Shown here piece by piece: positions 1 through 63,637 of a DNA stretch of 64,000 nucleotides. The notes under the pieces were generated by a model, which had not been told where the DNA came from, made no database searches, and saw nothing but the letters and a program-made list of their open reading frames with translations. The translations under genes were made by a program, and so were the position numbers. Position 1 is the first letter of the stretch. Every line of letters starts with the position of its first letter. Origin of the DNA: Candidatus Aenigmatarchaeota archaeon (lineage in GTDB: Archaea > Aenigmatarchaeota > Aenigmatarchaeia > CG10238-14 > SCSR01); contig JAWBWS010000004.1 of NCBI GenBank assembly GCA_038999725.1, positions 717-64,716 on the forward strand, given 5' to 3'.

Positions 1-1660
1 CAGTAATGTTTAAAGTGTAGTTTCCACATTCGCTTGATTTTAATAGCCAAGATATCATCGAGCTTTCATTCTCTCCAATCTCGGCTAAAGTTTTCTGCAG
101 GCCTTCGGCTGCAAATTCTTGTGGGGCTTGCAAGCTAACAAAAACATCAGAAGAGTTTCCATTCATCGAAGTGATAAAAGCTTTAACTTCAAATTCTTCG
201 GAAACATTAACAGAAGAAGGAACTTCTATTTTTTCTATCTTAATTTCAGGTTTTAGCTGAACATTTTCTTCTGAAATTTCAGACAAAACTTCCAAGCTTC
301 CCTCTTCTGTTTCAACCCAATTTCCAGCCAAATCAGAAGCATAGAACTTGAAAGATACAATTCCAGCTGAGTTAACAGTTTTTGTTACATTGCTCCATGC
401 CTCCAAAACATTAAGGTTTGAAGACCAAACAGCCTTTCCAAACCTCTTGACCAAAATCACATGGCTAGGGACAGTTAAATCATAAATCATACCCTTATAA
501 CTTTCTAGATTTATTTGCTTGACATAAATCGGCTTGAGATTTTCATCAAGAAAAGTTATACCATAGCCAGCTTTGGCAAGCTCATAAGCTTTTTCTACTT
601 CAATGAACTTAAATTCACTTAAATCCACACCAAATAAAAAGTCTTTAATTCTTCTAACAAAATCCAAGGGATAATCTATTCTTGCAAAGACTTTGTGGTT
701 TGGCGTCACATGAATGTCAATTTCTCCGTTTATCTTGTAAATCCCGTCATCATAAGGAAGAGCAACTATTCTCAAGGGCTTCTCCCATCTTATTTCACCA
801 GCAGAAAGAACTGCAATTTCATCCTCATAGCTCAAATCTTTGAAATACTTCCACCCATGCCTAGTAAAAACTTTAGTTTCCCCATCATAACTTGAAATGA
901 AAGTATAACTTTCATTTTCCCAAGAACCAGAAGAATTCCAGCTGAAGATCCACCTATCCAAACCGAAATCATCTTGCCAAAAAGCAAAGAACTCTACTTC
1001 TTCCCCAACTTTTGCTTTTTCTCTGCTTGCCCCAAAGAAAGAATAAGAAGGGGCTTTTGAATCTTCCTGAGAGGTTGAGTTGTCGATTTCGACTGTATTA
1101 TTCCACCCTTCAACTAGAGGCATGCTAGTTGTTGTTGATGTGGTTGTTACAGGTTCGACAATTTCCTCTTCAGAAAGCAGAGAAGTAGTTGTTGTCGAAA
1201 TAGGTGTGCTTTCGTCAGTTTCTAAGCTTGAACTTTCATTGTTTTCCCCTTCTACCATCACAAACTGGCCTGAAATGTCTTGTGGATTGCTTACATTGGG
1301 AATATTTAGAAAGCCGGAGAAATTCTGGGCCACTATACCTGCTTGTAAAAGAAGGAGAAAGGCTATTGTGAGAATTACTGCAATCTTTAAACCTTTTTCT
1401 CCCTTTTTTGAAGGACAATCTCCTTCCTCTTGATTCGACACTTTCCTCAAATAGCAAAGCTTTGCCGATCCAATCCTTCTTTCAAAAACTACTTTTTTTC
1501 TAATCAATTCCTTGACATACTTTGCAGAAGTATGTCTATGCAAACCAGAGAGCTTTGCTATAGAACCAATAGTAAGGCCTTCTGGATGCTTCCTAAGCGT
1601 TTCTATAATCTTCTCTCTAGGATCTTCAGCCATCATCCCATGTACACCGGTGTACAACAT
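1..1660 (-). CDS. Membrane-anchored winged-helix regulator-like protein with an extracellular Hint (intein/hedgehog-like) domain; C-terminus runs off the window start
   Basis: The minus-strand frame is open from the window start up to a stop near 1802, with ATG at 1660 (ML YTGVHGMMAEDPREKIIETLRKHPEGLTIGSIAKLSGLHRHTSAKYVKELIRKKVVFERRIG = wHTH). A hydrophobic segment follows (LKIAVILTIAFLLLLQAGIVA), then a Thr/Ser-rich linker (TTTTSLLSEEEIVEPVTTTSTTTS). Hint blocks are present: SYDGETKVF... (N-terminal block), IHVTPNHKVF (TxxH block) and MIYDLTVPSHVILV (C-terminal block). The ORF track missed it because there is no stop inside the window. Confidence 0.6.
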   Translation of the reverse strand, partial: MLYTGVHGMMAEDPREKIIETLRKHPEGLTIGSIAKLSGLHRHTSAKYVKELIRKKVVFERRIGSAKLCYLRKVSNQEEGDCPSKKGEKGLKIAVILTIAFLLLLQAGIVAQNFSGFLNIPNVSNPQDISGQFVMVEGENNESSSLETDESTPISTTTTSLLSEEEIVEPVTTTSTTTSMPLVEGWNNTVEIDNSTSQEDSKAPSYSFFGASREKAKVGEEVEFFAFWQDDFGLDRWIFSWNSSGSWENESYTFISSYDGETKVFTRHGWKYFKDLSYEDEIAVLSAGEIRWEKPLRIVALPYDDGIYKINGEIDIHVTPNHKVFARIDYPLDFVRRIKDFLFGVDLSEFKFIEVEKAYELAKAGYGITFLDENLKPIYVKQINLESYKGMIYDLTVPSHVILVKRFGKAVWSSNLNVLEAWSNVTKTVNSAGIVSFKFYASDLAGNWVETEEGSLEVLSEISEENVQLKPEIKIEKIEVPSSVNVSEEFEVKAFITSMNGNSSDVFVSLQAPQEFAAEGLQKTLAEIGENESSMISWLLKSSECGNYTLNIT

Positions 1661-13147: not shown

Positions 13148-13242
13148 GCCGAGGTCGCCTAACTGGTAGGGCACCGGTCTCGAAAACCGGCGGGCGCAAA
13201 ATTTTGCGTAAGCCCATGTGGGTTCAAATCCCACCCTCGGCG
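13148..13242 (+). tRNA. tRNA-Ser (anticodon CGA) with an unusually long (~27 nt) variable arm
   Basis: Acceptor GCCGAGG/CCTCGGC, 3-bp D-stem GCC/GGC, anticodon stem CCGGT/ACCGG, loop CTCGAAA, and T-arm GTGGG-TTCAAAT-CCCAC. The variable region CGGGCGCAAAATTTTGCGTAAGCCCAT forms a long hairpin. Confidence 0.8.
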
Positions 13243-13532
13243 CAATCAAATCTTTATATGCTTTTCGCTTTTTCTCCTTCTGACACCTTTTGGGATAAAG
13301 TTCAAAAAATAAGGAAGTTTTGTGAAAAGGAAAAATTGAATCAATACTGGCAAAAACTGAATGAAATTGCAGAAAAAGATAGGTTTTGTTGTTGATACAG
13401 CTAAAAACATCTTTGAACCCCAGAGATCTTACCATTTAATTTGTTGCCACAGCTTCTATTTCTACACCAGATTTAGTGGGATATGCAAAATCAAAGATAG
13501 AAGCATTGTATCAAATTAGTAAACGAAGCAAT

Positions 13533-60469: not shown

Positions 60470-60575
60470 GCTGGTGTAGATTAGTGGTTAAATCGCGGCG
60501 CTCATAGCATCTGTGAGCTTTGATAGAAAGATGAAAGAAACGCCGAGATCGCGGGTTCAAATCCCGCCACCAGCA
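60470..60575 (+). tRNA. tRNA-Met or tRNA-Ile2 (anticodon CAT) with a canonical 37/38 intron (~32 nt)
   Basis: Acceptor GCTGGTG/CACCAGC, D-arm GATT-AGTGGTTAA-AATC, anticodon stem CGGCG with CTCATA followed by the intron GCATCTGTGAGCTTTGATAGAAAGATGAAAGA, then A-CGCCG, and T-arm GCGGG-TTCAAAT-CCCGC. Confidence 0.8.
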
Positions 60576-60995: not shown

Positions 60996-62231
60996 TTATA
61001 TCCTCAACTTTTGATTTTTTTCCCATTCCTCAACTCTTCTTCTGTATTCGCCCAACTCTTTTTCATAAATTTCTTGAGCGCGTTTTTCTTCTTCACCCAA
61101 CCTTTTCTTCTCAACCTCCCAGTCTTTTATACTATACACACCAATTTTTTTTACAACATCCTCAAAAGGTCTACCTAAAACTGCGGCTATGTGCTTCAAA
61201 GTTAGATCAATTTTTTCACCTTTTCTAGGAAGATAAATGGGATAGCTAGAGGTCATCTTTTGGATTCTCCAGTATATTACACACTCGTCTTCATTTGTTA
61301 GATTGTATTTCTTCTTAATATTTAACCAACTTTCATAATCTAAACAACCCTTGGCGATAGCAACAACAAAAAGCTCTTTTACAGGTTCCCTACACCCAGG
61401 CTTGTCAGAAAATACATTCTCAACCCTATTCTTTATCGCTACCGTAATTTCTTCCTTGATTGAATCCAAACTTTCTATTTTTTCTTTCATTTCCTTTTTC
61501 ACTCTCTCTTTAATTTCTTCAAAAGATGGTGGTGTGAATGGAGGTGGTAAAGGACTTTCAACATCTATCTCATCCTCTTTTTTGATTTCTTGTAACAAAT
61601 CTTCAATTTTTAAATTCAACTTTTTTGCCAATTTAACTGCAGGATCAATCACCTTATCTTTCAAGTAGGATTTTATCACCCATTTTTCTATAGGAAAACT
61701 TCTATCTTCGACTTTTTCTCCAATTAAAACATAAAATTTCTTCCTTCTTTTATCTTCTTCAAACTTAACAACCTGGCTTCTCCTCTGGATAAAATAGCCC
61801 ATGCTCCCCAAAAATTGCTCGATTTCTTTCACATCTTTCCCCCTTGATTCCGGTTCCACCACCACAATTTTACCACCAACCTTTAAGCTGTAATCTAAAC
61901 CAAGAAGGGTAGCGCCCTTTGCTTGTCGATGAAGGTTATGAAGAGTTAAGTTACAAAATATGTAGTCAAAAGCCTCCTTTCTCCATGGAATCGAGTAAGG
62001 GTAAACGCATACAACAAAATCGGTATTGTAAGTTTTCTTGGCCAATGAGCGAGCTTTAGCATAAGAATCTGTTGTGAGAACATGGGAAGAAATTTGCCTA
62101 TCTTCAATCATCTCCAAGAGAGCAGAACACTCTTCACATCCAACTTCCAATAACTTTTTTTCTTCCAATTCCATCTCTTCTATCAAGTTTGCCAATATCT
62201 GATGGGAAGCCACTTGAGAGGAAGAGCTCAT
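60996..62231 (-). CDS. Class I SAM-dependent methyltransferase fused to a C-terminal uncharacterised domain
   Basis: N-terminal motif I-like LEVGCEECSALLEM and post-I acidic VLTTD. A proline-rich linker PLPPPFTPPSF follows, then a ~170-aa C-terminal domain. Confidence 0.55.
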   Translation of the reverse strand: MSSSSQVASHQILANLIEEMELEEKKLLEVGCEECSALLEMIEDRQISSHVLTTDSYAKARSLAKKTYNTDFVVCVYPYSIPWRKEAFDYIFCNLTLHNLHRQAKGATLLGLDYSLKVGGKIVVVEPESRGKDVKEIEQFLGSMGYFIQRRSQVVKFEEDKRRKKFYVLIGEKVEDRSFPIEKWVIKSYLKDKVIDPAVKLAKKLNLKIEDLLQEIKKEDEIDVESPLPPPFTPPSFEEIKERVKKEMKEKIESLDSIKEEITVAIKNRVENVFSDKPGCREPVKELFVVAIAKGCLDYESWLNIKKKYNLTNEDECVIYWRIQKMTSSYPIYLPRKGEKIDLTLKHIAAVLGRPFEDVVKKIGVYSIKDWEVEKKRLGEEEKRAQEIYEKELGEYRRRVEEWEKNQKLRI

Positions 62232-62361: not shown

Positions 62362-62487
62362 GGCCTAGCTGGCGTAGCCTGGTTAGCGCACAGGCCAAGT
62401 GAATTCCTGAATGTGGACTAACCGGGCAGCAAGCCTGAAAGTGTGAAAACACTGGGTAAGGGCGGGGTTCGAATCCCCGGCTAGGCC
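62362..62487 (+). tRNA. Probable tRNA-His (G-1 / C73 acceptor) with extra inserted segments; candidate anticodon loop ATGTGGA
   Basis: 8-bp acceptor G-GCCTAGC/GCTAGGC-C (extra 5' G pairing with discriminator C, as in tRNA-His). D-arm GCGT-AGCCTGGTTA-GCGC closely resembles archaeal tRNA-His. T-arm CGGGG-TTCGAAT-CCCCG. About 73 nt lie between the D-arm and T-arm where ~23 are expected. A GTG-centred loop ATGTGGA sits at 62411–62417, flanked by two ~15-nt segments, between CAGGC (62391) and GCCTG (62433). A further ~20-nt hairpin AAAGTGTGAAAACACT lies in the variable region. Confidence 0.55.
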
Positions 62488-62488
62488 A

Positions 62489-63637
62489 TCAATAGGATTT
62501 TATCTCAACATTTTCCAATACCTCTTCTATCATTTTCTCGATGTTTAATCTCTTCTCAAAACTTCTCACCAATTCTAAATTTCCGGCAGCACTTGCATGC
62601 TTTGGTGTGAAGAGTGTGCAACAATCTTCTTGCGGCTTTATCGAAATTTCAAAAGTTCCAATTTTTTTCGCCAGTTCAATTATCTCTTGCTTATCTAAAC
62701 CCACTAAAGGCCTCAGGATTGGTAATTTGGTTACTTCTTCTATTATTCTCAAATTTTTCAAAGTTTGTGAGCTAACTTGAGCTAAACTTTCCCCTGTAAC
62801 AATTCCATCACAACCTTCTTTTTCTGCAACTTTTTCAGCAATTCTAAGCATCATTCTTCTGTACAACAATATTCTGTACCTTGGCTCAACACAAGCTTTA
62901 ATCTTCATTTGAATTTTGTGAAAGGGGATGAAATAGACTTTGAGCTTTGGTTGATACCTTAAGAAAACTTGAGCAAGTTCTTTGACTTTTTGTATACTTG
63001 AATTTGAAACTAAGGGGAAGCTGTGAAAATGAACCCAAACATTTTCACTACCACGCTTAGCAATCAAGTAGCTTGCAACTGGTGAATCAATTCCACCAGA
63101 GATTAAGGCCAGTGCTTTGCCCCCACTTCCAACAGGCAAGCCCCCCTTACCTTCCTTTTTCTTGAAATAAATAAACCATCCATCTTTCCTTGCCTCTAAA
63201 AACAATTCAACATTTGGTTTTTCTAAATCAACCTTTCTTTCTATTTTACTTGCAACTTTCCTTATTATTTCTTCACTACTTTCTTTCAAGTTACCTTTCT
63301 TGAGCCTTATGGCAAAAGTTTGCCTTTTCTTCACCCACTTTTCATGATTTTCTTCTATAAACTTCAAAAGCTCTTCTAGATTACCTTCTAAAAAAATGAC
63401 ATCAGCAAACCAGGAAATTCCAAAAACATTTTTTATGATTTTCTCTGCTTTTTTTATTTCACCCGTTTCAATAAAAATTCTCTCTCTTGATGGGAATATT
63501 TTAAAGTTCACTCCAGCCTTTTTGAGAAAAACGGAAATATTACTGGTGAGTTTTTGTAAAAAAAGATTTCTAACTCTCTCAGACTTAAGAAAGAGTTCAC
63601 CAAAAGCTATCAAAATACCTCTCTTGATTTTCTCCAT
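62489..63637 (-). CDS. thiI: tRNA 4-thiouridine synthase ThiI (THUMP + PP-loop)
   Basis: N-terminal THUMP region and PP-loop LISGGIDSPVASYL. Confidence 0.85.
   Translation of the reverse strand: MEKIKRGILIAFGELFLKSERVRNLFLQKLTSNISVFLKKAGVNFKIFPSRERIFIETGEIKKAEKIIKNVFGISWFADVIFLEGNLEELLKFIEENHEKWVKKRQTFAIRLKKGNLKESSEEIIRKVASKIERKVDLEKPNVELFLEARKDGWFIYFKKKEGKGGLPVGSGGKALALISGGIDSPVASYLIAKRGSENVWVHFHSFPLVSNSSIQKVKELAQVFLRYQPKLKVYFIPFHKIQMKIKACVEPRYRILLYRRMMLRIAEKVAEKEGCDGIVTGESLAQVSSQTLKNLRIIEEVTKLPILRPLVGLDKQEIIELAKKIGTFEISIKPQEDCCTLFTPKHASAAGNLELVRSFEKRLNIEKMIEEVLENVEIKSY

Follow-up and report, generated by a model that had tools for sequence, protein, structure and literature searches.

A tRNA-His(GUG) gene probably split by three short BHB introns in a Candidatus Aenigmatarchaeota archaeon

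Introduction

By which route could a mature tRNA-His be obtained from a gene in which extra nucleotides separate both strands of the anticodon stem from the anticodon itself? Archaeal tRNA genes may contain up to three BHB introns, a situation encountered mainly in Thermoproteales, and these introns can occupy non-canonical positions and be bordered by relaxed HBh' or hBH motifs (PMC4033280, PMC4390854, PMC4090602, PMC8450103). In DPANN archaea, the disruption of tRNA genes has been linked to endonucleases of broadened specificity (PMC3488258, PMC5829648), EndAs possessing an L3 loop have been associated with disrupted tRNA genes, and complete tRNA sets are reportedly difficult to obtain for DPANN genomes (PMC5829648).

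In the present work, we analyze a locus located at positions 62362-62487, forward strand, of a 64-kb stretch of DNA from Candidatus Aenigmatarchaeota, referred to hereafter as the window. A sequence-only reading had described this locus as a tRNA-His-like gene with inserted segments on both sides of a GTG anticodon loop and in the variable region, and had remarked that such demanding substrates for the splicing endonuclease are known in only a few archaeal groups, which fits the literature (PMC4033280, PMC8450103, PMC5829648). From sequence comparison and folding, we propose that the locus very probably provides a Candidatus Aenigmatarchaeota (DPANN) archaeon with a functional tRNA-His(GUG) gene, split by three short BHB introns.

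The tRNA-His framework

The locus spans 126 nt, versus 75 nt for the mature tRNA, which leaves 51 extra nucleotides and agrees with the earlier estimate of about 50 between the D-arm and the T-arm. The tRNA landmarks previously recognized were all retrieved: an 8-bp acceptor closed by G-1:C73, in which GGCCTAGC (62362-62369) pairs with GCTAGGCC (62480-62487), a D-arm reading GCGT-AGCCTGGTTA-GCGC (62372-62389) and the two halves of the anticodon stem, CAGGC (62391-62395) and GCCTG (62433-62437), lying 37 nt apart. A further 25 nt separate GCCTG from the T-stem, and the T-arm itself, CGGGG-TTCGAAT-CCCCG (62463-62479, forward strand), matches the T-loop motif exactly. The G-1:C73 pair corresponds to G62362:C62487 and is kept as G:C in 8/8 aligned sequences; the encoded 3' end lacks CCA, position 62487 being the discriminator C73. 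The locus forms one of only three G+C-rich islands in a window of 35% G+C, and three independent Logan assemblies carry it in identical form.

Standard gene finders miss this framework. Default ARAGORN makes no call at the locus and the Rfam tRNA model returns no match there, neither at the gathering threshold nor at E<=10, so that tRNA-His would probably seem absent from the annotation of the MAG, a type of gap already described in DPANN genomes (PMC5829648). When introns were allowed on the unspliced sequence, the sole ARAGORN solution was a 'tRNA-Ala(agc)' in which position 33 is C, the acceptor has 8 bp and the variable arm is long. The gene would then contain a single 30-nt intron and display the loop CCAGCAA. 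This implausible alanine gene is also the only single-intron software solution, and none leaves a standard 7-nt GTG loop after removal of one canonical intron, an outcome that would have contradicted the sequence-only reading. Although it is the only answer that ARAGORN gives for the unspliced sequence, tRNA-Ala(AGC) would have C33 where U33 is near-universal, its anticodon would start with A34, and a non-His tRNA would be given both an 8-bp acceptor and a long variable arm. It is without any homologue, whereas the histidine solution matches homologues exactly, and the genes flanking the locus are common to the tRNA-His loci of relatives. We give the alanine gene practically no credence. In contrast, in-silico removal of the three introns defined below generates a 75-nt RNA that ARAGORN identifies as tRNA-His(gtg) and draws as a normal cloverleaf, in which the anticodon loop reads CUGUGGA and the variable loop has 4 nt (AGGG).

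Homologous genes and the exon/intron map

GTDB genomes and JGI metagenomes were scanned with the sequence of the D-arm and the 5' strand of the anticodon stem, which retrieved 14 loci, three of them titled Aenigmatarchaeota. The string CAGGC-CTGTGGA-GCCTG is unbroken and followed by a 4-nt variable loop in every one of them (14/14). Two intronless genes, at the related loci designated L004 and L017, have the same sequence as the spliced 75-nt product across the D-arm, the anticodon arm and the variable loop, an agreement well beyond chance. This exact match fixes the junctions of the three introns by homology, without any BHB rule, and gives the inserts of the sequence-only reading the following limits, all on the forward strand:

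62362-62396, exon 1: G-1, acceptor 5' strand (62363-62369), U8/G9, D-arm (62372-62389), A26, CAGGC (62391-62395) and C32 (62396)
62397-62411, intron 1: 15 nt, AAGUGAAUUCCUGAA, non-canonical position 32/33, relaxed HBh' motif
62412-62416, exon 2: 5-nt micro-exon UGUGG, comprising U33, the anticodon G34-U35-G36 and G37
62417-62431, intron 2: 15 nt, ACUAACCGGGCAGCA, canonical position 37/38, strict hBHBh' motif
62432-62438, exon 3: A38, anticodon-stem 3' strand GCCUG (62433-62437) and A44; AGCCTGA in all homologues
62439-62459, intron 3: 21 nt, AAGUGUGAAAACACUGGGUAA, non-canonical position 44/45, relaxed HBh' motif
62460-62487, exon 4: variable-loop GGG, T-arm (62463-62479), acceptor 3' strand (62480-62486) and C73 (62487)

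From the D-arm on, exon 1 is the same as in L004 and L017, and the ARAGORN cloverleaf of the spliced product agrees with its limits. The anticodon loop is reconstituted from C32 (62396), UGUGG (62412-62416) and A38 (62432) as CUGUGGA, a 7-nt loop with a GUG anticodon, U33 and a purine at position 37. Exon 2 is required since it rebuilds this loop, which is invariant in 7 distinct homologues; given the loop of the homologues, the junction of intron 1 is unique.

The junctions found are 62396/62397, 62411/62412, 62416/62417 and 62431/62432, to which the third insert adds 62438/62439 and 62459/62460. Those proposed earlier (62395/62396, 62410/62411, 62417/62418 and 62432/62433) each deviate by one nucleotide and were rejected because they would produce the loop AUGUGGA and abolish the 4-bp H helix. 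The string ATGTGGA from which they derive does occur at 62411-62417; the true anticodon loop nevertheless reads CUGUGGA. The expectation of two or three introns at non-canonical positions was correct in that three introns are present and that introns 1 (32/33) and 3 (44/45) are non-canonical; intron 2, on the other hand, occupies the canonical position 37/38. The permutation envisaged as an alternative does not correspond to the organization of the gene, whose four exons are colinear within 62362-62487: no 3' half lies upstream of a 5' half, as in permuted genes, and no separate loci are involved, as in split genes.

Some resemblances between the introns may be mentioned. Introns 1 (62397-62401) and 3 (62439-62443) both start with AAGUG and both finish with AA, and the string CCUGAA(U/A)GUG occurs twice, at the boundary of intron 1 and exon 2 (62406-62415) and at that of exon 3 and intron 3 (62434-62445). 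These shared ends and the repeated string, in sequences that are very short, suggest that introns 1 and 3 may have a common origin. The rest of the window contains no copies of any of the three introns in excess of chance. The introns, which are just 15-21 nt long, do not encode a C/D box guide of the tRNA-Trp intron type, and no UGAUGA occurs within 62362-62488.

Selection on the exons

The alignment of 8 tRNA-His sequences comprises 22 stem pairs, in which 100% of the cells are paired and 7 pairs display compensatory change. This level of covariation was reached by 0/500 shuffles, and slid controls paired at 12-48%. The window possesses double changes of its own, at acceptor pairs 4:69, 5:68 and 6:67 and at T-stem pair 50:64. 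Such window-specific compensatory changes indicate that the exons are kept under selection for tRNA function and argue against a pseudogene.

A decaying or redundant pseudogene, in which the inserts would be junk while another gene elsewhere in the genome serves histidine decoding, would account for the lack of the inserts in all relatives. It would also be in line with the turnover of tRNA-His in the clade, where L018, L020-L023, L025 and L026 hold a different, intronless tRNA-His at the same spot. The exons are, however, intact and fully base-paired, with their own compensatory changes in the acceptor and T stems, and all three inserts sit at junctions of BHB geometry, a coincidence whose joint chance would be roughly 1e-7 on the assumption of independence. 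Moreover, the spot of the relatives' intronless gene is occupied here by the three-intron gene, and the 64-kb window contains no second tRNA-His or T-arm match. We therefore consider a pseudogene improbable and a functional tRNA-His(GUG) gene much more likely.

BHB motifs at the intron junctions

In the BHB geometry applied here, nucleotides -5 to -2 of the 5' exon form a 4-bp H helix with nucleotides -5 to -2 from the 3' end of the intron, and cutting occurs between the second and third nucleotides of each 3-nt bulge. The resulting register agrees with the published placement of the first two anticodon nucleotides in the 4-bp helix (PMC4090602). A BHB scan revealed fitting motifs at junctions moved by 1 nt from those of the sequence-only reading, of the HBh' type for introns 1 and 3 and of the hBHBh' type for intron 2.

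The H helix of intron 1 pairs CAGG (62391-62394) with CCUG (62406-62409), the bulges being C31-C32-a and a-a-U33. A short inner helix joins 62398-62399 to 62404-62405 and the outer helix is absent; the local MFE structure forms the H helix. For intron 2, C32-U33-G34-U35 pairs with GCAG (62426-62429), the anticodon stem serves as outer helix, the inner helix consists of C62418:G62425 and U62419:G62424, and the bulges are G36-G37-a and c-a-A38. The H helix of intron 3 associates GCCU (62433-62436) with GGGU (62454-62457), with bulges G43-A44-a and a-a-G45, an inner hairpin AGUGU-GAAA-ACACU (62440-62453) and no outer helix; the local MFE structure of 62432-62462 is exactly this HBh' structure. 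The inner hairpin had been noticed earlier as AGTG-TGAAAA-CACT and is better read as 5 bp closed by a GNRA tetraloop. Both strands of the anticodon stem serve as BHB partners, one with intron 1 and the other with intron 3.

As a control, shuffled introns were examined at the junction fixed by homology and counted when they gave a 4-bp H helix together with a flanking helix of 2 bp or more. A BHB was obtained in 133/200000 shuffled versions of intron 1 (6.7e-4) and in 562/200000 of intron 3 (2.8e-3), and with a frequency of 0.044 for intron 2 once intron 1 had been removed. Because loose BHB-like motifs are common (15 within 127 nt), the BHB evidence counts only in combination with junctions defined by homologues. 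No covariation could be obtained for the intron helices, as no relative found shares the three introns.

The same geometry, applied blind to relatives L013-L015, recovered a strict BHB around a 17-nt T-loop intron at position 59/60, with UUCA/UGAA as H helix, an outer helix of 7 bp and an inner helix of 3 bp capped by a UUCG loop. ARAGORN misses the gene in L014 and L015. The tRNA-His genes with this intron are:

L013, 1-89
L014, about 380-470, reverse strand
L015, reverse strand

Could the gene contain two introns only, with 62439-62459 retained as a long variable arm of class II type? The hairpin AGUGU-GAAA-ACACU is stable and is drawn by ARAGORN as a variable arm; the motif of intron 3 is relaxed, lacking the outer helix, and its H helix includes two G-U pairs. 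Yet excision of exactly 62439-62459 restores the 4-nt variable loop AGGG found in L004 and L006, and this loop measures 4 nt in every homologue found. The HBh' motif is also rare in shuffles, at the frequency given above, and coincides with the local MFE. Nothing else assigns the gene to class II or to the Sec type, since TCA is absent from the locus and GUG is the sole fitting anticodon. Retention of the third insert is thus very unlikely, and the three-intron structure is used in what follows.

Proposed splicing order and precursor folding

The motif of intron 2 depends on the prior removal of intron 1. In the unspliced RNA, where U33 is one of the bulged nucleotides of the intron 1 motif, the H helix of intron 2 is incomplete and this intron has no BHB; the motif is present with intron 1 spliced out. 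Since this strict motif forms only once intron 1 is gone, the introns are probably removed by the archaeal splicing enzyme in a fixed order, introns 1 and 3 preceding intron 2; we infer both the splicing and its order from the predicted motifs. Proximity-forced ordered BHB formation is known for closely spaced introns (PMC8450103, PMC4033280, PMC4390854).

In the proposed pathway, the precursor of about 127 nt would first fold its acceptor, D and T arms, while each strand of the future anticodon stem would be engaged in a relaxed HBh' motif through its H helix, intron 1 providing the partner of CAGG and intron 3 that of GCCU. EndA would then cut in the 3-nt bulges and an RtcB-type ligase would join the exons, releasing introns 1 and 3. 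With C32 now adjoining U33 and the anticodon stem free, the strict hBHBh' around intron 2 (37/38) would be complete and intron 2 could be removed in turn. The final product would be a 75-nt tRNA with an encoded G-1:C73 pair, to which CCA would be added later. Because introns 1 and 3 have no outer helix, an endonuclease of relaxed specificity is needed, and the splicing endonuclease of this lineage is predicted to accept motifs devoid of this helix. A phmmer search of the ORFs of the 64-kb window with an approximate M. jannaschii EndA sequence gave no match.

The global MFE structure of the precursor (-60.4 kcal/mol) is not a cloverleaf, the cloverleaf and BHB forms lying about 20 kcal/mol higher, at about -38 to -40 kcal/mol; the conformer with the BHBs of introns 1 and 3 and the conformer with the anticodon stem differ by no more than about 1.5 kcal/mol. 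The dominant element of the MFE structure is a 10-bp helix in which the D-arm (62377-62386) pairs with intron 2 (62418-62427), GCCUGGUUAG with CUAACCGGGC. The complementarity extends to 62389-62392 versus 62412-62415, and 13/16 positions match when the adjacent exon is included. It is rare in shuffles, 12/5000 by helix length and 41/5000 by duplex energy. We read the non-cloverleaf MFE as the combination of a limit of the energy model and a real complementarity between the D-arm and intron 2, not as evidence against a tRNA.

The reverse complement of intron 2 accordingly resembles a copy of the D-arm. A bolder scenario would make the introns very recent gains in one lineage, with intron 2 an inverted D-arm copy, perhaps acting as a temporary lock that holds the D-arm and masks the site of canonical splicing as long as introns 1 and 3 persist. 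We consider it doubtful; if true, the intron itself would encode a device for folding and ordering, and the locus would be a rare snapshot of the birth of BHB introns. In shuffles, the resemblance between the reverse complement of intron 2 and the D-arm was equalled in 87/2000 cases against the L004 type and in 306/2000 against the L020 type. A derivation of the introns from remnants of the opposite-strand tRNA-His of relatives was rejected, only the reverse complement of intron 2 being weakly D-arm-like.

Host and evolutionary context

The end of the window corresponds to the 5' end of an archaeal 16S gene; over these 166 nt, identity with the 16S of the Candidatus Aenigmatarchaeota MAG L007 reaches 95.8%. 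The ThiI protein encoded beside tRNA-His is likewise recorded at NCBI as Aenigmatarchaeota. None of the three introns was encountered in about 20 related loci, and a metagenome scan demanding intron 1 between CAGGCC and TGTGG found no match. Their absence from every related tRNA-His gene found designates the introns as lineage-specific, and they are best read, on these comparisons, as gains in the lineage of the window.

The flanking genes common to relatives encode deoxyhypusine synthase, two kinases and a 71-aa protein. The 71-aa neighbour is shared by L004, L006-L008 and L013-L017, where tRNA-His lies just downstream, and tRNA-His of L013 has the same orientation as in the window. By protein identity, the closest relatives are L018, L020-L023, L025 and L026 (ThiI 76-83%, DHS 82-85% where present). 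Their tRNA-His genes are intronless, differ in sequence (GGCCAAGGTGGTGTAGCGGTTAGCAC...), lie on the opposite strand and start 1-2 nt past the ThiI stop, that is at the same spot:

L018, 4143-4215
L020, 2916-2989
L021, 2227-2300
L022, 1824-1897
L023, 3639-3712
L025, 1292-1365
L026, 2786-2859

The occurrence of different tRNA-His genes at a fixed site suggests gene replacement or inversion. Relatives without intron, with a T-loop intron or with an inverted replacement gene would together constitute a compact natural series for the study of short BHB intron gain.

Two features of the neighbourhood deserve mention. In the window alone, a 411-aa ORF (60996-62231, reverse strand) with only a weak Methyltransf_11 match separates the 71-aa gene from tRNA-His; in relatives, the tRNA is directly beside the 71/72-aa gene, and L018 has another insert elsewhere, encoding a 381-aa Peptidase_M10. 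Among the homologues of ThiI (62489-63637, reverse strand), the best-scoring named ones outside Aenigmatarchaeota are labelled Parcubacteria, Minisyncoccales and Nealsonbacteria (CPR), with 60-67% identity. The presence of ThiI homologues in CPR bacteria hints at gene transfer between DPANN and CPR.

Comparison with known disrupted tRNA genes

The gene resembles the three-intron tRNA genes of Thermoproteales in several respects. Three short BHB introns in one gene represent the known maximum; one canonical intron at 37/38 is mixed with non-canonical ones bearing relaxed HBh' motifs; and the introns are so close that one excision must precede the formation of the next BHB. It differs from them by its host, a DPANN archaeon (Aenigmatarchaeota) and not a crenarchaeon, by its His isotype, by the positions 32/33 and 44/45 and by the 5-nt exon U33-G37 enclosed between two 15-nt introns. 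Unlike the intron families that have transposed in Thermoproteales, the introns described here have no similar copies elsewhere in the window.

Closer in phylogeny are the disrupted tRNAs of ARMAN-2/Micrarchaeota and other DPANN, with which the gene shares the superphylum and non-canonical introns with relaxed motifs; T-loop introns, found here in relatives L013-L015, are a further common trait (PMC3488258, PMC5829648). One of these studies considers 46 species in all, and the four DPANN genomes that it newly analyzed include no Aenigmatarchaeota among those four (PMC5829648). In the literature on archaeal disrupted tRNA genes compared here, no report of a three-intron tRNA in DPANN was found.

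The split tRNA-His of Nanoarchaeum equitans is likewise a DPANN tRNA-His(GUG) maturing via BHB recognition at 37/38 (PMC4090602). In that case, two separately transcribed halves are joined in trans, whereas the exons are colinear at one locus here. The kind of gene is thus already known; what is particular is the host phylum, the His isotype, the 5-nt anticodon micro-exon and the involvement of each strand of the anticodon stem in a BHB. Three-intron tRNAs with a forced splicing order, as deduced here, would extend past Thermoproteales to Aenigmatarchaeota.

Other disrupted RNA genes in the clade

In this clade, tRNA(CAU) possesses a conserved 33-nt intron, and neighbouring tRNA genes also bear variable short introns. 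The genes carrying the 33-nt intron are:

window, 60470-60575, forward strand
L004, 409-515
L007, 5024-5132
L008, 2369-2476
L013, 383-494

Within this intron, the element (A/G)UGAGC is complementary to positions G31-U36 in the anticodon arm and precedes UUUGA. Counting upstream from this D'-like UUGA, the 5th nucleotide is the G that faces C34, and in relatives a perfect C'-like AUGAUGA follows. By analogy with the intron of tRNA-Trp, the tRNA(CAU) intron may act in cis as a half C/D guide directing Cm34.

An extra insert of 15-25 nt, absent in the window and in L018, is found in tRNA(CAU) where the D-stem meets position 26 (near 25/26) in the following genes, all on the reverse strand:

L020, 3300-3422
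L021, 3264-3386
L022, 2227-2349
L023, 4058-4189

The tRNA(CAU) genes of L020-L023 probably contain two introns, the additional one being present or absent depending on the near relative considered. The strict BHB geometry was also tried on the canonical intron of tRNA(CAU) and on these extra D-arm inserts, where it neither fits nor resolves the splice sites.

Ribosomal RNA genes seem to be concerned as well: the 16S genes of relatives span 2.5-3.5 kb versus 1.48 kb for the model (L009 3986-6533, L010 9124-11791, L012 837-4390), which implies rRNA introns. A LAGLIDADG-family ORF is present near ThiI in L026 (14-937). In the window, tRNA-Ser(CGA) (13148-13243, forward strand; 96 nt) is drawn by ARAGORN with a variable arm of unusual length. 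Finally, over-long tRNA genes of 97-124 nt, scoring 39-48 bits with Rfam, occur in L009 (2734-2857), L010 (14144-14267) and L006 (2269-2365 and 3562-3661); these genes of related Aenigmatarchaeota contigs are probably further multi-intron or non-canonical-intron genes.
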